IMG/VR virus record: IMGVR_UViG_3300044640_000597
Location: 21,966-85,965 of that record
Origin: a virus
Reading direction: 5' to 3' (one strand)
DNA length: 64,000 nt
Shown here: in pieces, positions 836 through 64,000 of the stretch
Layout: every line of letters starts with the position of its first letter
Numbering within the stretch: position 1 is the stretch's first letter
Translations under genes and position numbers: made by a program
Notes under the pieces: model-generated
Databases searched by the model: none
Told to the model about the DNA's origin: nothing
Seen by the model: only the letters and a program-made list of their open reading frames with translations

Positions 836-3800
836 TTATAACATACAAATTTGTGTAACATCTGATTGGGCAACCTTCGTAGAAGTTGCATCGTAATAAG
901 CTTGAAGCATGCTCATTATGTTATTAGCATTCTCAGTACTATCCCCAAATGTTCTCTTGTTTAACCAGTCTCCCCCAACGATATGCTTCTTATTGTTAGT
1001 GGTTCCGAACATGCTCAAATATACGGTTTTATCCGTAGTCTCTGTAGGGTTAGCTTTAACATAAACACCAGACTCCCCTTTTGAAGTTCGGAATACCATT
1101 ACACCAGGAGCTTCTTGATTACCCCCGAACTTCTTATTAGATATTTTGTGTACCTTTTCTAGTTTAGTATACTCTGGTCCGAGTGAGTGTCTTTGGAGAA
1201 GGTTTCTTCCTCCTGGACGAATCTCTCCATACACTCTAAAGAATCTAGCTAAGTCCTCAGCATCAAAGTATTTACCTGTCTGCATCTTAGCAGACTCTCC
1301 GTGCATGTAATCAGCTACACTTATTGGCTTCAAAGTCTTACCAGTTATAGCTGTGTTTACTTCTCTGCTCATAGGGTTAAGCCAGAACTGAGGAGGGATC
1401 ATAGACACATAGTTAAATGCAGACTTTCTAAATCCATTAGAGATCAAAGCATGCATGCATAAGTCGAATCCTATCTGTCTAATCTTTTCTACATTCTTCT
1501 TATACTCCTCCAGATTGTCTGTCTTCTTTACATAAGCCTCTGGTTTGTATAGAAGGTTATGTAAGTCATCTTGAATTCTAGACTTTTCCTCTCTTGAGAA
1601 CTGTTGAGTAGCATCGAAGTTAAAAGTCTTGAAGTTTTTAAACTTACTGTTATTCTCATCTTCAGTAAGCTTCATCAAGAACTCGTTACCTGTTAGGTTA
1701 CCAAACTTTGATGCAGCCTCTTCAATCCTTTTCCACAATGTAAGAGCAGGTTTACCCTTCTTAGTCTTTGGATCTATAGTAGCAGGATCTATATAACCTG
1801 GCTTGTACAATCTCTCACTGTACTCTACATTCATGTACTGTGCTATAGGAGATTCTTCTTTAGTTAGGATAGTAAACATGATAGCAGCATTTACGTCTCT
1901 GTGATGATCCGTAGTCATAGCATCAAGACTAGCAGCTGTTCTGATTGCTTCTTTAAACTTAAGAGAAGACTCAGATGTAGTCATAGGGAATAGAACACTG
2001 GATACCCCAGCCATCTCACTTAGCAGATTGTCATATCCTCTTTCAAATCCATAAATAGAATTCTCATCAAAGAATTGAGTAAGTACGTTCTCATCTTTAC
2101 CTCTTCCGTAGAATGCTATCGGGGCATTGTTTAATTTACCACCTTTTGGATTGTCAAACTTTTTCTTCTTTCCCATATGCTCCTGAATTGCTTCAAGTCG
2201 GTTGATACCAGAGGTTGTATCTGGAGAGATAAGTCTGAATGCTTCTTTGAGTTGGCTACCTGCAGTGTACATCTTAAGGAAGTTTTGCAAAGCTCTTTCT
2301 TTATTGACAGTTAATGTCATTATAGATTGACGAGTCATTGCAGTTGTTTCAGAAATGTTCTTGTAGTTAGTAGGAAGGTCTTCACTACCCAATGTAATTC
2401 CGTTCTTATCAGCTACTTCTTTATAAGCTTCATTAATCTTAGACAGGTCATCATTGAACTTGATAGCCATTGTATCTACAAAGTCTCTGATGATAGGCTG
2501 ATTAAGGAAGTGATGTAGAAGCTCTGTATCCCCATAGTATTGTATCCACAAAAGTTCTACAGGGAAAGTAACTGCATTATCATTTACTATATAATGGTAC
2601 GGAGCTTTAGTAGCATCCACAGCTGCGTTAAGATAACGAGACATTATTTTATCTGTAGGTTCTCCAGCATCATATGCGAATCCACTAGATGCAGGAATTA
2701 TTTCTTGCATCTTAGTGTTAATCATCTCCCCTGCAATCTTAACTGCAAACTCAGATTTAAGATTAAAGTTATCAGATACAGTAGCAATGTTTCTTCCAGC
2801 AAGTGCATTTGCCCATAGACCTCTCATCTTGTTTCCAAGCATGTTTCTAACAGCACTGGTAGTTTCATACATACCACCTGTAAACACTTTGCTTGGGGCC
2901 AACTCTCTATTCAATTCAATTATAGAAGTTCTTATATTTTTAAGTACTTCGTTATCCAAAGGTCTAAGTGTTTCTAAGTAATGCTCAGGAGAAGAGAACA
3001 CAGCCTCGATTGTATCAAGTACAATATTGGTCAACTCCTTATCAGATATCTTAGATACATCTTTAGTTTTAGCAAGAGTTTTATAATCAGGTCTTACTTT
3101 AGTACCATCCTCGTTTAGCTCAGGGAATAACAGGAACATTTTATCTACGTCAAAGTCAGATCCCATAAGCTTTACAAGCTGTGGGGGAACTACTATTGCC
3201 TTTTCGTATCCAGCAGGAAGTACAGATTTAATCTTGAAGATAATGGTAGATGCTTTATCCTGGTTAGGGATACGGTAACCAATGATTCTTCTGAGTTCTT
3301 CTGGGATGTTATTAGCATCTAAGTCTGCACCTGGTTCGATTCCAAACTTTCTAAGTACATCCTCTCTGATCATGATCTCAGCATGAGCTAGTCTAGTACC
3401 TCTCCTTTTATTTGTAGGATGGTCCACAACCTCAAGGAATTTCAAAGAACGATCTACTTCGAATCCACCTAGAGCTGCAGTTTGTACAGCTTCGTACCCT
3501 GGTACATATTGTTTAAATACTCTGTTGTTATATACACTAAGCAATGCACTTTGGAAAGCAGTACCGTATACAGGGAAGTCCATTGGTATTGCGAACCTAG
3601 CAATACCAGTAACAGGATCAATAGTTATATCAAGAGCCTTAATGAAGTTATCACTTAACTCTCTTTCTATAGCCTGCTCCTCAATTAGGTTTCTGATATT
3701 CTTAAGTAGTCTGGCTTTTGCTTCTTTAAATTCTTGAGCACCTTTTATAGAGTCAACATTTGGTTTCTCAGACTTAAGTTTGTTTACTACCTTTCTGAAT

Positions 3801-6800
3801 TCTGACAATCCAATCTCATTATTTACACTCTCGAGGTCTCTTCTGAGTCTCTCTTCGATAGCAGCATGGTAAAGAGCAGTCATGTCTGCCCCAGGAATAG
3901 CCGTCTCTCCAGCTATACCTGCATTATAGTAGTATAATTCAGTAGACTTTACGTTAGCAATAGCATTCTTTTTAATCTGTCTTCCTAATATAGTCTCTGA
4001 ATATTCTTTTGCTGCTGGAACAGTCTGTGGGAAACCGAGAGCTGATGTAGAGTTTCTATTGATTTTTACATTTCTAAAGAAGCCTCCTTGAATACGAGAC
4101 CACCCTTTCATATTAAATACATTTAACTGGACACCCTTCTTAGCAGATACGGCACTAGCTGTGTGTATCTTTTTCATTCCTGCATAAGGATTGTTTGCTT
4201 CATTAGGGTTGGCTTCCATCCTCATCCTCATATCATCCATTACAGGGAATGCTTTAGTATACGACTTAAGCAATGGGAAGTAAGCTGTCTTAGTAAGGTC
4301 TACAGCAACAGTTCCTCCTATAGATTTAACTTCTTGTCCAAATGGTTTATAAGGTCTGATAGGGATATCCTGTCCAACCTTTGCTCCTCTTGGAAGATCT
4401 TTTACACCAGCAGGATATACAAACTTTCCTTCTGGATCGTTTTTATAATTATTGTATGCTACCTCATGGTATTGAAACCATTCTCCTTCTCCCTGCATGA
4501 TTTCCCTAAGCCAATCGATGGATATCAAAGTCAAACCATCGTGCTCTTCAAAGCTACCTGCTTTGTACTCATCAGTGAATGCTGCTTCAGCTGCTGTGTA
4601 TCCTGACTTAAGCAACATTTCTTTTGTACGATTGGCCCAATTGTTCATCTCTGTTGCTATGGCTGCAGTAACCTGACCCATAGGATCATCGAATACCATC
4701 TCGTTATATTCAGAGATAGCTCCATAACGCTCATCCATCCAAGGCACATAATTCCCTAATCCATCCTTTTTAGCTAGTGTGTTCTTTTCAGCAAGCTTAG
4801 TACGAGGAGTAGTCAGAAGTCTTTGACGTTTAGTAAAATCTTCAATGTTTTTAAACAAAGCTCTGTTACCTCTAGTCAGTTTAATGATTTCATTTCTCCC
4901 TAAGTCTTCATGTATAAGGAAGTCTTTAAGCAAAGGAATCATAGCCTGTACAAAAGGAGAGTTGCCTTGCTCGTCTTTCTTTCTTTTAGACAAATCTACC
5001 CCTGCGATATCAGCCCACTTCTTAAGCAGTTTAGAATTTACATCATTCTTTCTGTCTGCCTCTTCTATTGTAGCAGCCATCTGCTTAGCTTGACCAGTGT
5101 AAAATAAAGACAGCCCACTAATCATTTCTGTAAGTTCATTTCTAAACTGCTGCAGCTCTTGAGATAATGGAAGATTGCTTTTTGTTTTTCTAATAAACTC
5201 TTCTGCAAGGTCAGACATTCTCATAACCCCTATACTAGAGTTAATAGCTCTGTCTGTTACAATTCTGTTCCCTAGTTCATCTATACCATCAAACTGCATG
5301 AACTCATCACTTAGGCCTCTCATCTGACCAGTATGGTAATCTGGGATAAGAGTAACATTAGGATCTTCTTTAGATGCAGCTATTGTAGCCCTAGCTTGTT
5401 TGATTCTTAAAAGGTCTTGTAGGATTGCATCTCTAAATACATCACTAACACCGTTCTTCTTATTGAACTTAGTATCAAAGTGACCTTTAATCCTAGGCAT
5501 AAGCATCATATCAAAACGAGCTCTATCTGCCTGAGCAGGTACAGCTACGTAATAATATTTCTCATTAAAGTTATTATTGTAGATCTCAAGTCTTGTTAGT
5601 ACAGAGTCTACATTATTGAAGTCTTCATAATCCAAAGCATCATCTCCGTAGTCTCTGATACCTGCCAGTGGGGATGTCTTAAAGTCCCTTAGGAATTCTT
5701 CATTCTGTGTAAGATGGAAGAACAGATGACTAGGCATCATGTCAGGTGGGAAGATAAACTTATCCTTTCTGTACAGAGGTAATGCCTGCTCTTTGTTTGC
5801 AGTTACATCCTTTCTAATTTGGAAAGGAAGTTCAGAAAGAGTTGTAGCCATATTAACAGGATACATTGCTGACCCTGTAGGAGTTACAAAGCTTTCAGCT
5901 ACTCTGCTAGTAAACAATGGAGCTAAGCCTGCAAGGAACTTCATACCTTGCTTTTCTGTGTTGAAGTATAAAACTGGTTTTTCTTTTTTACTTTCTATAC
6001 CTACCCCTTCTCTGCTAGTACTTACATTTGCTATAGCTTCAACCATTTTAGATAACCTAGCTCTTTCAAAGATTGCATCAAAAGCTTCTTTTCCTATAAC
6101 AGTATGGTTTTTTACTTTACCAGCTTCGGTCTTACTTATCTTGAAACCTTTGTTGATCAGATTCTGGACATTAATTATAGTGTCCATTTGATTCACATTG
6201 CTACCAAAGTTAAACCCTAGCTCCCATATGAGACTCCCTAATGCCCATGCAGGAGAATCTATGACAGGTTCTTTATTAAAGAACTCTGCATTTGGATCTT
6301 CATTAGGTTTAAACTGCATCCTATTGAAGCCGTAGGCTTTTTTAAAAGCCTCTTTAATTTTATTAAACTTAGCAGTCTTAACAACAAAGCCTGAAGCTTC
6401 GTCATCTTCTTCTGATAGTGTCTTTGCAAATACAGCTCTACTTGATCCTTCCTCTCCTTCTTCCTGACCATTGATTTCAACCATCTGCCCAGTCCACTGT
6501 TTAACAGCTTTCTGTTCAGTTGTAGAACTATTAGCATTAAGTACCTTACCCTGACTCCCCAGAATTGCCATGTTAAACTCTGCTAGAGTTTGAGCAAATG
6601 TTTTATACAACAAGGCTCTCTCATTACCAGGCATACTCATTATACGTTGGTTAATGGAAGAGTAGTCTGGTCTATACTTAGAAGCCTCTATAAGCTTCTC
6701 TTCCATCTCCTGAAAAGAACCTACGTCTGCCCATAACTCTGAGAGTTGTTTGTAGACATACCTTAAAGACCAGTACTCTGTCTGATCAGTAAAAATGTCA

Positions 6801-21671: not shown

Positions 21672-24600
21672 TTATCTAGGTGATACTCTTAGGGCAGCTG
21701 TCACAGTATACAAATTTATCAAATTTCTTGATAAGTTGTTAGCTATTAAACGAATTCCTAAAAATTTATCTACGAACTTTCTCTGTTCGTACCAAGGTTT
21801 GTTAGAGTTTATGTAATTAGAATTTATAATCCCCTCGTATAAGAACATAGGCTCAGTAGAAGTTGAAGCAAATGTACTAGTATAGGGAACTCCTTGCACG
21901 TTAATCTGTCCTACAGCTAACCCAGTATTGTTAGCAATGTTAGATAGGTCTCTAAATGCATTTATATTCCAAGTGTTATCTGTTTTTCTAATGTTGTTTA
22001 GATAAACAAAATCTATTTCTCCAGATATCTGAGTCGTATTATAGACATAGAAACTAGTAAAACCTGGATGGAACTGCTGCTCTACAGGTAAAGAATAATT
22101 TACTTTAGAAAACACATCAGCAGTATACTTAAATGAAGTGTAGATAGCATTTACTGGAGCAGTAAAGATGCAGTCTATTTCGAAGTTGTAAACTGTACCA
22201 TAGAAGTTTCCAGGATTGCTTAAGTCACTGTGCTCGTACATGTAAGTATACTGTCCAACAAATGGAAGTATTTGGGTATCAAAGCTATATAGATACTTAG
22301 AGTTGTATGCATACAGAGGTGGTATGTAGGAGTGTCGGCTAGCCCATATGCTCATTCCATTTGAGAATGAAATTGTCCAGCCACCTCTTTCAAAGTAAAC
22401 CCCTTCCTCAAGAGGAATGAAACTAGAAGTATTTGAATCATAGAATTGGTTTTTCTCATTTTGAAAAAAGATTCTATTTTGTTTAAACTCTTCTACAAAA
22501 TATTGAGTTGGGATAAGCTCTCTTTTTGTAATAATAGTCCGTTTAAATAACGGGTCATAGCTAACAAGGAATCCAAAGTCTGCTGTAGGGGAGTCCACAT
22601 TATAAACGGCCGAATCCATAACTCTCGCTCCGTCTGGATCCCATCCATAAGCTTCTAAAGCAAATGGGATGTTCTCTCTAGCCCAAGCATTTATTCCAAG
22701 TTCTGTAAGATCTACAATTTCGTCTTTAACTAAGAATATTTTTCTAGACTTTCTTGATACAAAAATGTACCCATCTTTGGTAACCAATGATCCCATCTTA
22801 TTATAGAGACCATTGTAACCTTCAGTGCTTTGGATAAATTCATCTGGCTCTTGAGCAAACAAATCCCCTGATCCAATGTAAGCCTGAGTAGCATCTGATA
22901 ACTCAAGGTTTTGCTTACCCTTAGTTCTAAATAAACTCTTCTCAGTGTGAATATAAAGAAGAGCCTTTAGGTTAAAGATGTTAGTAATCTGTCCTCTGTT
23001 TACTGCAAAGTCTTTATACTGTAGTCCGAGGAAGTATCTATAAGTATCATTGAAGTTACCATCTTGTGCTGAAGATCGTATCACTCTATTAGGGAAGAAT
23101 GGAGTGCTAATAGCTTCCTTAGGGAATGGGATTGTAACCCTAATATCTTGTGAAGCTGAGTAGTGGTCCTCGTAGAGAATGTTATCCATCTTGGTTAAAT
23201 CCCCAAGAGGACTTCTCCAAAGAACATCAGCTGCTACGTACTTATCAAAGTACATGCTGTTTAACTCACTAACTCCTGCTTCAGGATCTCCTGCATGTCG
23301 GTAGTTAATGTTGTCGTCAGACTCTACAATAAATTGATAAATAGTACTAAATGCTACATTACCATTCTTACTCCAGTTGTCATCAGTAGTAACAGCAGAT
23401 CTCCTTAATCCTTCAATTTCATCACCACCTTGTGGGTAAGGTCCAGAGCCACCAAATCTTAAAACGTCATAGTCTGATGTAGTTCCAAATATGTTTGTTC
23501 CAAATGATGGAGTTCTACCTTCAGTTAAATCTATAGGAATATCACCAAACAAATAATCGTCTTGTGACCCAGTAGGATTTGAAAAATCTAAGTATCTATT
23601 AACACCTCTATTAAATCTTCCTAGCCCGTATAAGTTAGATGTGGTTCTATAGCTATACTTACATAAGTATGTATCTCCACCAAAGACTGGCTCTGACGAG
23701 GAAGTTGATCCTTGACCATAGTAGTAGTTATCATCCTCAGCATCGTATCCAGTGTCAATATTTACATTCAAAAGACTTTTGTAGTAGCCAGTCCATACTA
23801 GTTTTTGAGAATCGAATGGTTCGTAAACATCTGTTTTAGTAGCACATAAATTTACTAAGTATACATTAGGTCTGGTTCTAGGGTCATTAACTGGGGAGCC
23901 TTCTATTCCTCCTCTAGGATAGAAATTATAGCCATTTATAGGATCTGTAATGAGTATGTTTTCTGTCAGAGTAATTATCCCTCCAGAGGCATCTAGAGAT
24001 TCTATGTATACAGGTCCAGTTGTAGGTAGGTATCCAGCCCCAGATGTTACTAGCATTCCTACAAAAAGATTGTTGATATCTGGATCAAAAGTTGTAATTA
24101 CAGGGAGTCCTGCAGTAGAGCCTCCTGTAATATTAATAGAAGCAGGTACTCCAGATGTATCTGGGGTACGTATTGCATAAGGCTGTCGTAAGCTTCCATG
24201 TCCTCTAGACATTAAACCATACCATTCAGATAAATCAGTTACAAAAGATGCACCTAACCCTCCATCATTTATATTGTTTGCTGGATAGAAGTCTGGGTTG
24301 ATACCACTTATTAAGGGGTATAAAGTTCCTGCTGCGTATATAGGGAGAGACCACATTAGGTTTCCTAATCCTACATAGCTCCACTCATTACTTCTATATC
24401 CACCCAGCATTGGTAGGCCTGACTCTAAGCTAAGAGCAATTGCACTTTCTCCAAAGGTGTTGTGTAAATAAGTAGAACTTTTAAAGCTGTTAGCTGATGT
24501 AGATTTAAGTATGCTAAGACCTGCTAAATATGTAGCACCGTTAGGCTCTATCATAAATATAGACTGAGCATCACTTAACAGATTAGCTTGGTTTGGTAGA

Positions 24601-58465: not shown

Positions 58466-58600
58466 TTATCCTTGCCCCTTGCTAACTTTCTTGTAAAGTT
58501 TTGAACTTTTAAGTTTAGAGTGCTTTTTCTTAGAATGAACCCCTGGACGTTTCTTTCTAGGGTTTGGGGACCAGGAGTTTACGGAGTTTATTTTTGCCAT
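58466..58600 (-). CDS. 44-aa highly basic protein (not in ORF track)
   Basis: MAKINSVNSWSPNPRKKRPGVHSKKKHSKLKSSKLYKKVSKGQG; A-rich leader and TAAATTTG box at 58618-58625. Confidence 0.65.
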   Translation of the reverse strand: MAKINSVNSWSPNPRKKRPGVHSKKKHSKLKSSKLYKKVSKGQG

Positions 58601-59346: not shown

Positions 59347-59374
59347 AGCCTCCTTATTGGGGGCTTTTTCTTTT
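59347..59374 (+). terminator. Intrinsic terminator
   Basis: AGCCTCC-TTATT-GGGGGCT followed by TTTTCTTTT. Confidence 0.75.
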
Positions 59375-59915: not shown

Positions 59916-59939
59916 GGGGGACATTCGTCCCCCTTTTTT
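59916..59939 (+). terminator. Intrinsic terminator
   Basis: GGGGGAC-ATTC-GTCCCCC-TTTTTT. Confidence 0.8.
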
Positions 59940-59949
59940 GGTTTATTTT

Positions 59950-60697
59950 TATGTCGATACTCGTTACTAAGCTCGTTACTAATAAATTATTATGTGTGTT
60001 GGAGAGATTGATTGCCAATACTCTCACACTCATTAAGTGTGGTATCATGATGACTATCTAACTAGTTGTATAACATGGTATCACACTTTATCCTCTTGTG
60101 TCTGATTAACAGAGACACAGATAGGGTATGACTGTAACCCATAGCAATACAGTTATTATACATTCTAGTTATAACTTTAACTGGTAAAACTTGTACTGAT
60201 ATACAGGTAATCCTATACTAGATAGGTTCTTGGTTCCGTGGCTTGACATCCATTGTTAAAACAAGTTGTTATATGATACCTTAAATTAAACCTGGAATAT
60301 GGTTGCACCGCTTGTAGGTCATGGTGTGTAAAAGTAAAACAGCCTTCTAATAATCCTAAGTGGATAGCTTCTCACTGATGCTTAAAGTGTTCTTTTTATT
60401 TAATTACTTATTTATTTATTTTCCTTAATTAATGGGTGGGATTAATGTAGTTAATATCCTATACCCAAAAACCTAAGAAATGCAGAATATGTGTTGATAC
60501 TTACTTAAACACTATTCCACCTATCAGTACTCTAAAAGAGAGGTTGTTAAACTGATATTAAAAGGTGTAAGACAATCCTATTTAGTCCTAAGCATGACAC
60601 TAAACTGCTTATTCATAGTATCGTTACTCTTTCTTTAACCGAGTATCTATCCAGTAAGCTGCTGGCGTTTGTGGGTGTCCAGATAACCCTCATATTT
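59950..60697 (+). ncRNA. Candidate large structured ncRNA (~740 nt)
   Basis: No plausible ORF; nested long-range helices and many hairpins (see findings); ends at a predicted ribozyme cleavage site. Confidence 0.45.
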
Positions 60698-60872
60698 AAT
60701 GCACCATAACTATCTTCCCAAGGGATAGCAGTTGTAATAACTAATGATATTGTAATAGGGTCTCAACAATACTGTTGCAACAGGTTGAGTAGGAATGCAC
60801 AATTCCCTAAATATCAAGACAGCTATGTTTGTCATTAGTATTAGTTGTTACAACTGAGTGCAGAGGGGATAT
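60692..60872 (+). ncRNA. Twister-like ribozyme (type P1) with large P5 insertion
   Basis: P1 ATATT/GATAT, UAA, P2 TGCA/TGCA, P4 CTATC/GATAG with loop TTCCCAAGG, pseudoknots CC:GG and CCC:GGG, conserved GA, 17-bp P5 stem. Confidence 0.65.
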
Positions 60873-60918
60873 TAAATTAGTAATCAATAACTTAAATCAT
60901 ACTCAAACACTTAACATC

Positions 60919-61155
60919 ATGAAACAAGCTGTTAAATTCTTATCAAAGATTGCTCAATTAGTACTAATAGCATGTGTAGTATTCGTTACTCCTGCTATTG
61001 TACACTGTATTGTTACCTTTACGTTCAGTCATTACATCAATGACTTGAGCTCGACTATTTACTGTGGTCTTATGAGTTTCATCTCATTGATTGTTACTGT
61101 ATTCTACATTGCTATTGAAGCTGAACGTATTGAAGATAAACCTTCTAACTTCTAA
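60919..61155 (+). CDS. Small two-TM membrane protein
   Basis: Start MKQAVK at 60919; two hydrophobic segments. Confidence 0.6.
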   Translation: MKQAVKFLSKIAQLVLIACVVFVTPAIVHCIVTFTFSHYINDLSSTIYCGLMSFISLIVTVFYIAIEAERIEDKPSNF

Positions 61156-61167
61156 TACTATAGCACT

Positions 61168-61359
61168 ATGAGTAACAAGACTAAATTTGCTGAGGATATG
61201 ACAGCCTTCGGGTTGTCTATCCTTATCATTATCCTTATTGTGATAATGATGACATCATGCTCTACATCTAGAGAGTATGGATATCAAGACCATCTAAGAT
61301 CTACTCACCACAAGAACTTTATCTCTAAAGATAATGGTGGTTGTGGGTGGAATAAGTAA
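61168..61359 (+). CDS. Small putative lipoprotein
   Basis: Hydrophobic stretch ending in a lipobox-like MTSC. Confidence 0.55.
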   Translation: MSNKTKFAEDMTAFGLSILIIILIVIMMTSCSTSREYGYQDHLRSTHHKNFISKDNGGCGWNK

Positions 61360-61455
61360 GGACTTTACCTATTGGACTTCATACAATAGCAGCTTAACGG
61401 TGAGGCTTAAACCGTTCCTTTTAATCTGTAATCAATAACAAACACATATAAAATC

Positions 61456-62094
61456 ATGACACAGTTAAAACAAACAGCGGTCGAATGGGTATTCGACAAG
61501 ATGAGTAATGTATTAGCTGGTAATTCCAGTGTAACTACTCAAGAAATACTAGAGCAAGGACTAGCAATGCATCAAGAACAAATTGAACAAGCTTGGATGG
61601 ATGCAGAAGATAATCTGCTAACCGAAGAGTCAGCTAAGTTCTTTGCAGAGAAATACTACAACAAAACATATAAAGTAGTAGAGGAGGAAGTAGTGGATGA
61701 CGAAGGTGATGGCACTATTCCTCAAGCTGAAGACTGGTTCATTGATATGGTCAATGAAGATGCTCATCCAGATGATGACTCAGAGTATCGTCAGTATCGT
61801 GAACGTGCTGATGTACCAGAATACATCATTGCATCTATTAGTCTTGATGCTTACGAGACATATGTATTCGAAGCTACTGCTGATGGTAACATAGTAACCT
61901 TCGATGAGTATGGTGGATTAGCAGCGAGATGGGGTGATGCTAGATGGTGGGATGCTGAAGCTGCTGTTAAATCATGTATGAGAAACAGCTATGATTTAGT
62001 ATCTGTTAAAGGTAATCACTATCTATTCAAGCTAGTTAAACCTGATGAGCTCACTCATTTCGATGGTGATGAATCAGATAGAATCAGCTATTAA
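61456..62094 (+). CDS. Hypothetical early protein (KQTAVEW N-terminal module plus acidic domain)
   Basis: 212-aa ORF with A-rich leader. Confidence 0.65.
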   Translation: MTQLKQTAVEWVFDKMSNVLAGNSSVTTQEILEQGLAMHQEQIEQAWMDAEDNLLTEESAKFFAEKYYNKTYKVVEEEVVDDEGDGTIPQAEDWFIDMVNEDAHPDDDSEYRQYRERADVPEYIIASISLDAYETYVFEATADGNIVTFDEYGGLAARWGDARWWDAEAAVKSCMRNSYDLVSVKGNHYLFKLVKPDELTHFDGDESDRISY

Positions 62095-62095
62095 T

Positions 62096-62464
62096 ATGAA
62101 GACACTTACCTACATCAAGAGAGTTGAGATAGAAGAAACAATACCGTTTCCTATCATCACATTTGTTGCTGAGAAAGTGCGAGTTAGTACAGGAGATAGC
62201 TCATGGTTTGACATGGGCTATACTCCTAGACTCGATGGTCTGACAGTACATCAGTATCGTAAACTCCATAATGCTTGGGATAGAGATATCGATATAGCCT
62301 TAGAAGAATATGTAAAGACTACATATAATCTACGTAGTGGATGGGGTCAAGTAGACTACCATGTCTATTCAGCTAAACAACTTGGTATGCCTGAGCTTAC
62401 TAAAGTTGATCCAAAGTTTAACGATGATCATGCTGATCTAGTTAGAATGTTTACAGGGGCTTAG
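62096..62464 (+). CDS. Hypothetical early protein
   Basis: Likely start MKTLTY at 62096, 1 nt after the upstream stop. Confidence 0.6.
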   Translation: MKTLTYIKRVEIEETIPFPIITFVAEKVRVSTGDSSWFDMGYTPRLDGLTVHQYRKLHNAWDRDIDIALEEYVKTTYNLRSGWGQVDYHVYSAKQLGMPELTKVDPKFNDDHADLVRMFTGA

Positions 62465-62469
62465 TCCCC

Positions 62470-62532
62470 TTTTACTAATGCAGCCAGTGTAACAACTGAA
62501 GGTCACAAGCCCTTTAATGCAGAGTGGTAAAA
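62470..62532 (+). ncRNA. Twister self-cleaving ribozyme (type P1)
   Basis: P1 TTTTAC/GTAAAA, UAA, P2 TGCA/TGCA, P3 CAGT/ACTG, P4 AAGG/CCTT, loop TCACAAGC, pseudoknots GC:GC and CAC:GTG, catalytic GA. Confidence 0.9.
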
Positions 62533-62572
62533 TCAATTCATTCATTTAATTTATTATTTAATCATCAAAATC

Positions 62573-63178
62573 ATGATGAACAACACAATCAACAGTGGCT
62601 CGTTGCAGGGATTGCAAGCGGGTCAAACCCTTTTACTCCAAGCTCGTAAGGTTAATGGAGGTAAGATTCAATTGGAATTTGCTGAGATTGTCAAAACACA
62701 GTCTACTGCAGCAAACCCACTTGCTATCTTTAACAAGTCAGACGACCGTTTCTCACAAGGCAATGGTGCTCGTCGTGCTTGGCTTACTGCTGAAGCTAAG
62801 GATGCTTCGGTTTATCTCAACATCAACCTGATGGATGATGCTGATTGGGAGGTTGACCAAATGGGACGTGAGATACTCCCATTGAATGTCATCAATCCAA
62901 TTGCTATCATCAATGCGGAAGCATTCCCATTGAAGGTGCAAGTTGAGGAGACTGTTACTCCTACAGATTGGCAGGCAAGCAACGTCGAAACTGCGGCTAA
63001 GCGTCGTGGTAAAGATGGGGACTTCATCACTCACCAAGGTATGTACATCTTTGCTAACACTCGTGTAGTGTTTAACAAAGCTAATCACATCTTCCTTGAA
63101 GTGGATGCTGCTAAGTCAAATGTATCTACTGGCATTCCTGCAAGTGGTAGCTTTGACTCAAGTCCGTTCTTCAGCTAA
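62573..63178 (+). CDS. Hypothetical early protein (possibly ssDNA-binding)
   Basis: 201 aa, beta-rich, C-terminal ...DSSPFFS tail; lies before the DNA polymerase. Confidence 0.5.
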   Translation: MMNNTINSGSLQGLQAGQTLLLQARKVNGGKIQLEFAEIVKTQSTAANPLAIFNKSDDRFSQGNGARRAWLTAEAKDASVYLNINLMDDADWEVDQMGREILPLNVINPIAIINAEAFPLKVQVEETVTPTDWQASNVETAAKRRGKDGDFITHQGMYIFANTRVVFNKANHIFLEVDAAKSNVSTGIPASGSFDSSPFFS

Positions 63179-63191
63179 TTATAGCTGAGTA

Positions 63192-63272
63192 AATCAGGTA
63201 GCTCAACTGGTAGAGCACTGCAAGTTCTGTTGAACTCTTGCATGGATATGGGTTCGAATCCCATCCTGATTT
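63192..63272 (+). tRNA. tRNA-like RNA with aberrant, elongated anticodon arm (no assignable anticodon)
   Basis: Acceptor AATCAGG/CCTGATT, D arm GCTC-AACTGGTA-GAGC and T arm ATGGG-TTCGAAT-CCCAT are all canonical. The anticodon arm is ~25 nt. Confidence 0.7.
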
Positions 63273-63436
63273 CAAAAACCCTCTCATTGTGTACTACGAA
63301 TAACCATTGAATAGACTATAGCAGGTTTGGGGTTGCCTGCTGTCTGTTCTCTGGCATATAAGCAAGAGAAAACAAGGGACACCGTTCGTTTGTTACTAGT
63401 TACGAAACAATTTAATTTAATCTAAATCAATAACTT

Positions 63437-63670
63437 ATGTCAAGAATGAAATTAGTATTAGACTTGATGGAGTCTGGGACTTATCAAGCGTTTGAACTAC
63501 AAGCTATGATGGCTAGCCAACGTGGAGAAAGACAATTCCAGTTTGGTAATGCATCGTATGATGTAGAGTTTGCTGCCAATGTGATGGCTTATATTTACCA
63601 CAAAATTGCACAACAACACCATGAACAACATTTTCTTTATCAGCAAGAACCAGGCACTGATAGCGAGTAG
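63437..63670 (+). CDS. Hypothetical protein
   Basis: 77-aa ORF with A-rich leader; overlaps the polymerase start. Confidence 0.55.
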   Translation: MSRMKLVLDLMESGTYQAFELQAMMASQRGERQFQFGNASYDVEFAANVMAYIYHKIAQQHHEQHFLYQQEPGTDSE

Positions 63671-64000
63671 TTTCAAGACATGTACAATCGAAGAAGCTGT
63701 TGAAGATCTACTAACTAGTAAGATACTAGGTGTGGATACAGAGACAGAAGGATTTGATTTCACATGTAAGAAACTGCTAATGCTGCAGATCGGTGATGCA
63801 GAGCGTCAGTATGTAATTGATTGTAGAGATCTAACTTATGCAGATCAAGTGCAATTGAACAGGGTATTAAACAATGAGGATATCGTCAAGATATTCCACA
63901 ATGCAAAGTTTGATTACAAGTTCATTAAGCACTATCTTAAGATAGATACTGTAAACATTCATGATACATACCTATGTGAGAAAATATTACACTGTGGGAA
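63621..64000 (+). CDS. Family A DNA polymerase, N-terminal 3'-5' exonuclease domain (runs off window)
   Basis: My translation: MNNIFFISKN...ILGVDTETEG...LQIGD...IFHNAKFD...IHDTYLCE, giving ExoI/ExoII motifs. The polymerase domain itself is outside the window. Confidence 0.8.
   Translation, partial: MNNIFFISKNQALIASSFKTCTIEEAVEDLLTSKILGVDTETEGFDFTCKKLLMLQIGDAERQYVIDCRDLTYADQVQLNRVLNNEDIVKIFHNAKFDYKFIKHYLKIDTVNIHDTYLCEKILHCG

Follow-up and report, generated by a model that had tools for sequence, protein, structure and literature searches.

Two twister ribozymes and a tRNA mimic in series in a phage gene block: candidate signals for RNA-encoded segmentation of a long transcript

Two twister ribozymes and a transfer RNA (tRNA)-like element lie in series in a plus-strand gene block of a virus, within a window of 64,000 nucleotides (nt) that makes up the last 64 kb of a single viral contig of 85,965 bp (IMG/VR record IMGVR_UViG_3300044640_000597, positions 21,966 to 85,965). 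Gene layout, together with a comparison with the crAss-like phage phi14:2, suggests that the genome is that of an uncultured freshwater or lake crAss-like phage. All three elements are sense-oriented and occupy gaps between genes that run in the same direction, and a stem-loop ends 2-6 nt before each of the three predicted cuts; at twister #2 and at the tRNA mimic, this stem-loop also holds the stop codon of the upstream gene. The most economical reading, to which we assign a probability of roughly 0.6, is that a long transcript would be divided into segments by signals encoded in the RNA itself. It is the most economical because the elements are real and covarying, sense-oriented, intergenic and preceded by hairpins, and because adjacent twisters in viral contigs are always co-oriented.

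A preliminary description, made from the letters of this DNA alone, had proposed such segmentation by a series running from a large domain without open reading frames (ORFs) through a twister-like element, four ORFs, a second twister, one ORF and a tRNA-like element to the polymerase operon. The ORF list, Rfam and reading of the sequence recovered every member of this series on the plus strand at the same coordinates; the large domain does fold better than shuffled sequence, and the tRNA-like element matches the tRNA model and has a covarying acceptor stem. The segmentation proposal is strengthened by the finding that its elements are conserved, covarying, on the sense strand and behind hairpins, but its extension to a circular messenger RNA (mRNA) found no support. 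The elements that would make the cuts, and the hairpins before two of them, are as follows.

60692-60872, plus strand: twister #1, type P1 with an expanded P5, from sequence reading, the minimum free energy (MFE) fold and family covariation
60729-60856, plus strand: P5 domain of twister #1, between P4 and P2; 128 nt, a long basal helix enclosing a branched insert
62456-62469, plus strand: P0 hairpin (GGGG/CCCC) before twister #2; a terminator-like site
62472-62530, plus strand: twister #2, type P1 with P0 and P3 (Rfam RF03160)
63171-63188, plus strand: hairpin with the stop codon of the 62573-63178 ORF; -9.0 kcal/mol, ending 3 nt 5' of the tRNA mimic
63192-63272, plus strand: tRNA-like element (Rfam RF00005, 52 bits against a gathering score of 29)

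Two type-P1 twisters

Twisters of type P1 may carry optional P0, P3 and P5 stems, and twisters tolerate all but pseudoknot and catalytic-residue defects (PMC5408937, PMC11662667). Cleavage falls at an N-A step, where the A serves as general acid and the G of the GA in L1 as general base (PMC11662667, PMC5408937), and most predicted twisters cleave in vitro (PMC11662667). Both elements described here resemble known type-P1 twisters (Roth et al. 2014, reviewed in PMC5408937; RF03160) in their P1-P2-P4 core, U/A step, GA in the 3' strand of L1, location near phage genes and, putatively in the case of twister #1, two pseudoknots and YCNCAAG in L4, as well as in their optional stems, which are P0 and P3 in twister #2 and P5 in twister #1.

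Searched with permissive thresholds, twister #2 aligns over the full length of the twister-P1 model RF03160 (52.1 bits, E 7.5e-10), and the alignment places the cut at U62476/A62477. Its stems are P1 (62472-75/62527-30), P2 (62479-82/62518-21), P3 (62485-98) and P4 (62499-501/62512-14); pseudoknot T1 joins CAC 62504-06 with GUG 62524-26, and T2 joins GC 62483-84 with GC 62509-10. The catalytic nucleotides can be read in place as the U62476-A62477 step and G62522-A62523. A set of related loci was fetched from 11 viral contigs by way of the 201-amino-acid (aa) ORF that follows this twister, and nine of the 11 keep the twister, with scores of 40.7-59.4 bits. Compensatory changes among these relatives affect P3 (CAGU/ACUG to CAUC/GAUG), P4 (AAG/CUU to AGAG/CUCU) and, in L010, T2 (GC:GC to AC:GU). 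At least 103 viral contigs contain the same subtype according to an exact-pattern scan, in which P2 was fixed by the search pattern. Of 78 distinct copies, 54 have a fully paired P1 (41 helix types), 72 a fully paired P3 and 71 a fully paired P4, in each case well above shuffled controls. Judged by this conservation and covariation, twister #2 is a genuine twister RNA. Its P0 hairpin holds the stop codon of the upstream ORF and is followed by UUUU that runs into P1. A P0 hairpin is present in 91% of copies of the subtype, with a mean of -11.4 kcal/mol (78-80 distinct copies), and mostly ends 0-5 nt 5' of the cleavage-site U.

Twister #1 consists of P1 (60692-96/60868-72, AUAUU/GAUAU), a cut at U60697/A60698, P2 (60700-03/60859-62, UGCA/UGCA) and P4 (60710-14/60724-28, CUAUC/GAUAG), which closes the L4 loop UUCCCAAGG at 60715-23. 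For T2, CC 60704-05 is complementary to GG 60722-23 in L4; for T1, CCC 60717-19 is complementary to GGG 60865-67, which lies in GAGGG 3' of the P2 3' strand. The presumed general base is G60863, of G60863-A60864. An unconstrained MFE fold reproduces P1, P2, P4 and P5 (-50 kcal/mol, z -2.9). At least 119 viral contigs carry the 5' core pattern, giving 111-117 distinct copies depending on parsing, and nearly all copies carry UGCAGAGGG 60-355 nt 3' of the core. P4 is fully paired in 106 of 111 copies, by 24 different helices (shuffled mean, 3.6 of 5 pairs), and the basal 9 bp of P5 are paired at 8 or more of 9 positions in 103 of 111 (42 types), around a hypervariable interior of 18-288 nt. Support for P1 is weak (3.25 of 5 pairs against 2.48 in shuffles), and P2, T1 and T2 were fixed by the search pattern and so were unable to covary. 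Between the two subtypes, both pseudoknots differ by matched changes: CC:GG in #1 against GC:GC in #2 for T2, and CCC:GGG against CAC:GUG for T1.

Compared with known type-P1 twisters, twister #2 differs in its score, which is below the gathering threshold of its family, and twister #1 and its whole subfamily are missed by Rfam. Twister #1 lacks P3, and its T2 is CC:GG rather than GC:GC. A linker of 4 nt precedes its P4, the P2 3' strand follows AG where known twisters have UAAA, and its P5 is 128 nt long, with a base that is conserved in sequence. The Rfam type-P1 model alignment shows no P5 position; short-P5 members of the family gave no Rfam match either. A relaxed twister descriptor finds both sites in the window, but since it also yields about 3.6 chance hits per shuffled genome, the case for the twisters rests on their consensus loop sequences and conservation. 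On these grounds we accept twister #1 as a twister of a subfamily missed by Rfam. Because the P5-type subfamily is invisible to Rfam, Rfam-based counts of phage ribozymes would be underestimates. A blastn comparison of the twister halves with GenBank phages gave matches at chance level only.

The preliminary description had named both cuts, 60697/60698 and 62476/62477. The RF03160 alignment arrives at the same bond for twister #2, which is borne out by nine of 11 relatives with compensatory changes, and twister #1 shows all core elements, a reproduced fold and a covarying family of at least 111 copies. Its suggestion of a search with Rfam models gave a divided result, with a sub-gathering match for #2 and no match for #1, and so did its suggestion of a survey of relatives for the same layout, in which #2 recurs widely and #1 is found in three distinct relatives. 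At the site of twister #1, homologs are found in L003/L004 and L011, with a compensated P4 (CUCAU/GUGAG) and unrelated P5 contents. Other relatives have other hairpins or a bare P5-like helix in this slot. The latter is seen in L007 (~2181-2281) and L009 (~3184-3325), where the helix GUUGUAAUA...UAUUACAAC encloses unrelated sequence and there is no twister core; the P5 base, which is conserved in sequence, may be an independent module or a leftover of a lost twister.

Several side observations concern P5. Across viral contigs L014-L132, the sequence of the P5 base (CAGUUGUAAUA/UAUUACAACUG) varies far less than that of P4. A role for the P5 insert as an antisense guide was considered, and the best complementary match in the genome (14 nt, E 0.025) was not convincing. 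In the riverine metatranscriptome assemblies X19 and X20, a common contig matches the window from 60716 on and has unrelated sequence upstream, and represents a relative whose twister 5' half differs.

The tRNA mimic and segmentation of the message

The tRNA-like element has a 7-bp acceptor stem and D and T arms, encodes no CCA, and has its anticodon arm replaced by a 7-bp stem with a 12-nt loop. ARAGORN reports it as 'tRNA-???', with no anticodon, and assigns mostly odd 2- or 4-base 'anticodons' to its relatives. It is classed as tRNA-like, and not as a decoding tRNA, because it lacks a 5-bp stem with a 7-nt anticodon loop. The relatives have different acceptor stems (AAUCAGG, AACCAAG or GACUAAA) that covary with their complementary strands, but the same D and T arms. 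The 7-bp stem of their middle arm is compensated throughout (CUGCAAG/CUUGCAG versus UAACGAG/CUCGUUA) and carries loops of 6-22 nt. Every relative also has, at the same place before the mimic, a hairpin of different sequence (-8.2 to -9.7 kcal/mol). A search of viral contigs with the tRNA-mimic pattern returned the same close relatives only, plus two ordinary long-arm tRNAs. From these features we infer that the mimic is unable to decode and keeps the features recognized by RNase P and 3' processing enzymes; it would be a substrate of RNase P and RNase Z, because the acceptor/T-arm stack and the D/T elbow are intact.

It is unlikely, in our estimate, that the tRNA-shaped element is instead a working RNA with no function as a processing signal, one that might, for example, serve a tRNA-binding enzyme of the host or the phage as a decoy or a cofactor. 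Such a role would fit the acceptor, D and T arms kept perfect by covariation, the conserved length of the 7-bp middle stem with its variable loops, and the presence of similar odd tRNA-shaped elements elsewhere in the genome (2694-3281). However, nothing indicates a specific partner, and the site between two ORFs, after a stop-codon hairpin, fits processing equally; the two roles are also compatible. The elements elsewhere in the genome, which lie outside the window (C1:2694-3361, L001), are three in number, have long or odd middle arms and adjoin a normal tRNA-Arg(UCU), with a hairpin 5' of the first. The tRNA model match of one of them extends over 108 nt, and one is classed by ARAGORN as tRNA-Leu.

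The placement of the twisters is as regular as their structure. Their 3' ends lie 42-46 nt before the next ATG. Members of the twister #1 family are intergenic in 102 of 110 cases and within 60 nt of a same-strand ATG in 30 of 100, with a median ORF-free distance of 272 nt upstream; the upstream hairpin is weaker in this subtype but enriched (37% versus 1% of shuffles). Wherever two twisters are adjacent on one viral contig they are on the same strand (30/30 pairs, median spacing 1.1 kb). The elements, their conservation, their covariation and their placement are direct observations.

The same observations bear on the view that the twisters bring no benefit for gene expression and have merely settled in permissive intergenic slots, either as mobile or selfish passengers or as neutral relics. 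The patchy occurrence of twister #1 (three distinct copies among 11 close relatives, with other hairpins or a bare P5-like helix in the slot), the nearly identical cores in more than 100 otherwise unrelated contigs and the tolerance of P5 for 18-288-nt inserts are all consistent with passengers. Nevertheless, the strict sense orientation in 30 of 30 pairs, the intergenic location of copies, often at a fixed 30-50 nt before an ATG, the hairpin adjoining the cut site, and the maintenance of catalytic nucleotides and, apparently, of both pseudoknots all argue against this view, which we regard as quite improbable.

Under the segmentation reading, the twisters would fold during transcription and cut themselves just 5' of the conserved A, at 60697/60698 and 62476/62477. 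At the tRNA mimic, host RNase P would cut the 5' end (~63191/63192), and the 3' end would be trimmed. Each upstream piece would be left with a protective hairpin end and, after a twister, also a 2',3'-cyclic phosphate, and each piece downstream of a twister would begin with a 5'-OH and a compact folded ribozyme as leader, 42-46 nt before the next start codon. The expected products are a ~750-nt non-coding RNA (ncRNA), two mRNAs with four genes and one gene, respectively, the tRNA mimic and the mRNA for the polymerase, and the stability and translation of the segments would be uncoupled from one another. Cleavage, co-transcription of the block and the effect on stability are the inferred parts of this scheme.

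Several points weigh against segmentation. The score of twister #2 (52.1) is below the Rfam gathering score of 67.2, although a gathering score is an annotation cut-off and not a structural requirement; an Rfam scan at gathering thresholds returned the tRNA match only. Twister #1 had no Rfam twister match at E values up to 10 (60600-60900 searched), and it is present in only three distinct relatives of the 11, and is therefore dispensable at its site. Cleavage at all three sites is predicted only. Cutting at twister #2 may be partial, because twisters with a P0 hairpin were cleaved on average only 40% in a high-throughput assay (PMC11662667). The block may not be one transcript, given that strong terminators are located at 59365 and 59933 and that the hairpins at 61396-61424 and 62456-62473 resemble terminators. 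Finally, the 'early' timing of the block is an assumption made by analogy with phi14:2. Public RNA data came from four metatranscriptomes, as assembled contigs of relatives, from which RNA ends are not readable; these contigs mostly cover the 62573-63178 ORF and part of twister #1, and leave 62399-62517 uncovered. A 62476->60698 junction was not listed among them, and these data bear neither way on cleavage or on circles.

A broader version of the segmentation reading is that phages of this kind use a general 'hairpin-then-cut' code, which we put forward tentatively, as a possibility we doubt more than we favor. A stem-loop, often holding a stop codon, would sit a few nt 5' of a twister or tRNA mimic, and a read-through transcript would be converted into a hairpin-ended upstream RNA and a downstream RNA capped by a ribozyme with a 5'-OH. 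The same arrangement would free large structured ncRNAs, here the 750-nt modular RNA and elsewhere GOLLD. If true, such a code would assign a function to the P0 stem, for which there has been no explanation, and would account for the presence of interchangeable elements in the same slots between genes.

The preliminary description had also raised the possibility that the fragment 60698-62476 becomes a ~1.78-kb circular mRNA. Specifically, the fragment, with its 5'-OH and 2',3'-cyclic phosphate, would be joined by host RtcB into a 1.78-kb circle. The end chemistry would be right for RtcB (established enzymology, cited in PMC8782182), and the same idea was raised by Perreault et al. for another ribozyme class (PMC3088659). 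However, a check for rtcB, also suggested in that description, found no RtcB (PF01139) in the phage genome, and reading of the sequence by eye revealed no pairing that would bring the ends together. Moreover, the 5' end of the fragment carries all of twister #1 except the P1 5' strand, and P1 is dispensable in twisters (PMC11662667). A ligated U-A junction should thus rebuild a cleavable twister and be cut again; adapters ligated to ribozyme 3' fragments meet the same re-cutting problem (PMC8782182). Perreault et al. could not detect circles (PMC3088659). Taken together, these points make a circular product very improbable.

The ORF-free stretch upstream of twister #1

Upstream of twister #1 lies a long stretch with no plus-strand ORF of 60 aa or more. 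Its parts are as follows.

59916-59942, plus strand: intrinsic terminator (terminator-like site 59916-59933), directly before the ORF-free stretch
59945-60690, plus strand: ORF-free, structured, modular stretch, downstream of the terminator and upstream of twister #1
60153-60365, plus strand: module A, a non-coding RNA module of ~210 nt with copies beside twisters
60608-60696, plus strand: module B, directly before twister #1; a pair of conserved hairpins followed by a small one (GGGU/ACCC)

The stretch 59945-60690 has an MFE of -180.6 kcal/mol, against -158.4 +/- 7.6 for shuffles (z -2.9). Copies of module A, 72-78% identical, adjoin twisters in four unrelated contigs (L069, L100, L117 and L081), and an RNAalifold consensus of five sequences has 39 pairs, seven of them with double-sided changes. 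Module B begins with a hairpin with the loop UUYCUUUAACC, followed by a second hairpin, CCAGUA-AGC-UGCUGG; copies stand upstream of twisters in L056, L062, L126, L132, L022 and L099, and the first hairpin shows compensatory changes in five of seven pairs. The segment 59946-60160 is conserved only in close relatives, and 60410-60580 is unique and AT-rich. Neither module, nor the stretch as a whole, matched an Rfam family.

This structure raises the possibility that twister #1 mainly makes the 3' end of a stable ncRNA of ~750 nt (59945-60697), with effects on mRNA being secondary, an explanation that partly overlaps with segmentation. In its favor are the long, structured, modular and ORF-free region directly upstream, the median of 272 nt without an ORF upstream of twister #1 family members, and GOLLD-like RNA 9-10 nt before the cut site in three contigs. 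Further support comes from the crAss-like phage phi14:2, whose long intergenic regions give rise to long non-coding RNAs that are abundant early on (bioRxiv 10.1101/2020.03.07.982082). On the other hand, the region is conserved only in parts, with 60410-60580 being unique and AT-rich; no known RNA family in Rfam matches it; and close relatives keep 59946-60160 yet are without twister #1. We therefore consider this explanation possible but doubtful, and still prefer segmentation of the message.

The GOLLD-like RNA (Rfam RF02032) has a score of 100.8 bits (E 2e-25), where the gathering score is 150. In three viral contigs it ends 9-10 nt 5' of the site at which a P5-type twister would cut (L053:4367-4836; L065:274-807; L098, minus strand, ~5260-5648 plus twister). 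Because these RNAs end 9-10 nt before a #1-type cut, the #1 type would also stand at the 3' end of ncRNAs, and the arrangement suggests that GOLLD 3' ends are made by a ribozyme. It thus provides a lead on how giant RNAs obtain their ends.

The first 9 kb of phi14:2 contain no twister, and the only match there was tmRNA-like (transfer-messenger RNA-like). This match, at 4031-4502 of the Cellulophaga phage genome (L235; 46 bits, E 6.8e-16, with a gathering score of 47), falls where the annotation shows tiny ORFs only, and may correspond to a member of the reported set of abundant early long non-coding RNAs.

Related systems and the surrounding genes

The early transcript of phage T7 is cut between genes by RNase III, leaving stable mRNAs that end in hairpins. 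The arrangement proposed here is similar in that a long message would be cut between genes into hairpin-ended mRNAs. Unlike in T7, where a host protein nuclease acts on double-stranded sites, the RNA would perform two of the three cuts on its own. In mitochondrial tRNA punctuation, in MALAT1-mascRNA and in the tRNA-microRNA units of murine herpesvirus 68 (MHV68), a tRNA fold recruits RNase P and RNase Z, which cut a longer transcript. A difference from these eukaryotic and organellar systems is that the fold here is a non-decoding tRNA mimic between phage ORFs.

The closest precedent is the work of Perreault et al. (2011), who described clustered hammerhead ribozymes flanking genes in prophages and proposed processing to gene-length mRNAs and circles (PMC3088659). 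Those hammerheads cut native transcripts of ~2 kb in vitro and in vivo (PMC3088659). In both cases, several self-cleaving ribozymes on the same strand flank single genes or short blocks. The present locus differs in using another ribozyme class, in having a tRNA-like element in the series and in having a hairpin before each cut; for the hammerheads cleavage was shown experimentally, whereas here it is predicted from sequence. Theta ribozymes, which resemble those of hepatitis delta virus (HDV), are reported to stand beside tRNAs in gut phages and to be tied to suppressor tRNA maturation and recoding (PMC10879173). Small self-cleaving ribozymes and tRNA genes act in the same phage transcripts there. 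In the present case, the twisters border segments that code for proteins, and the tRNA-like element is unable to decode.

Reviews repeat the idea of polycistronic processing for twisters (PMC5408937), and what twisters do for bacteria and phages is still called speculative (PMC5408937, PMC6765202). The arrangement has been known since Perreault et al. (PMC3088659), and the idea of ribozyme-punctuated phage messages is not new. What is new is the probable crAss-like setting, the tRNA mimic in series with ribozymes, and the shared hairpin-then-cut placement; we did not find the last two, or the P5-expanded subfamily unseen by Rfam, described elsewhere. The locus offers a compact test case: it combines both twister subtypes with a tRNA mimic, every element of the series stands behind a hairpin, and the phage probably belongs to an order, the Crassvirales, with unusual early transcription.

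Near-verbatim copies of the phage DNA occur in many lake-water metagenomes, and a blastn comparison of the region with GenBank phages gave no match. Positions 1-57,920 of the window are filled by large minus-strand genes, including those for proteins of 2,497 and 2,344 aa. The plus-strand block begins near 58,500 and runs off the window into the DNA polymerase gene. Its remaining features from twister #1 onward are listed here.

60919-61155, plus strand: ORF of unknown function, 78 aa
61168-61359, plus strand: ORF of unknown function, 63 aa
61396-61401/61411-61416, plus strand: stem of a terminator-like hairpin in the 61360-61455 gap, with a U-rich tail to 61424, read from the sequence
61456-62094, plus strand: ORF of unknown function, 212 aa
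62045-62464, plus strand: ORF of unknown function, 139 aa
62573-63178, plus strand: ORF of unknown function, 201 aa, between twister #2 and the tRNA mimic
63318-63343, plus strand: further hairpin in the 165-nt gap before the 77-aa ORF; a terminator-like site with 9 pairs
63437-64000, plus strand: 77-aa ORF, then the start of the DNA polymerase gene, which runs off the window (PHROG 17, E 2.8e-11)

The four ORFs at 60919-62464 matched no family above threshold in PHROGs or Pfam, and the 62573-63178 ORF matched none in PHROGs, Pfam or a protein atlas. The latter has relatives in the 11 viral contigs at 56-94% identity. An A/U-rich leader motif, AAUCAAUAAC, often followed by UUAAAUCA, is found at 60880-60900, 61428-61442 and 63415-63433 of the window. 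It recurs 10-40 nt 5' of start codons, both in the window and in its relatives, and on this basis may be a translation-initiation or promoter element.

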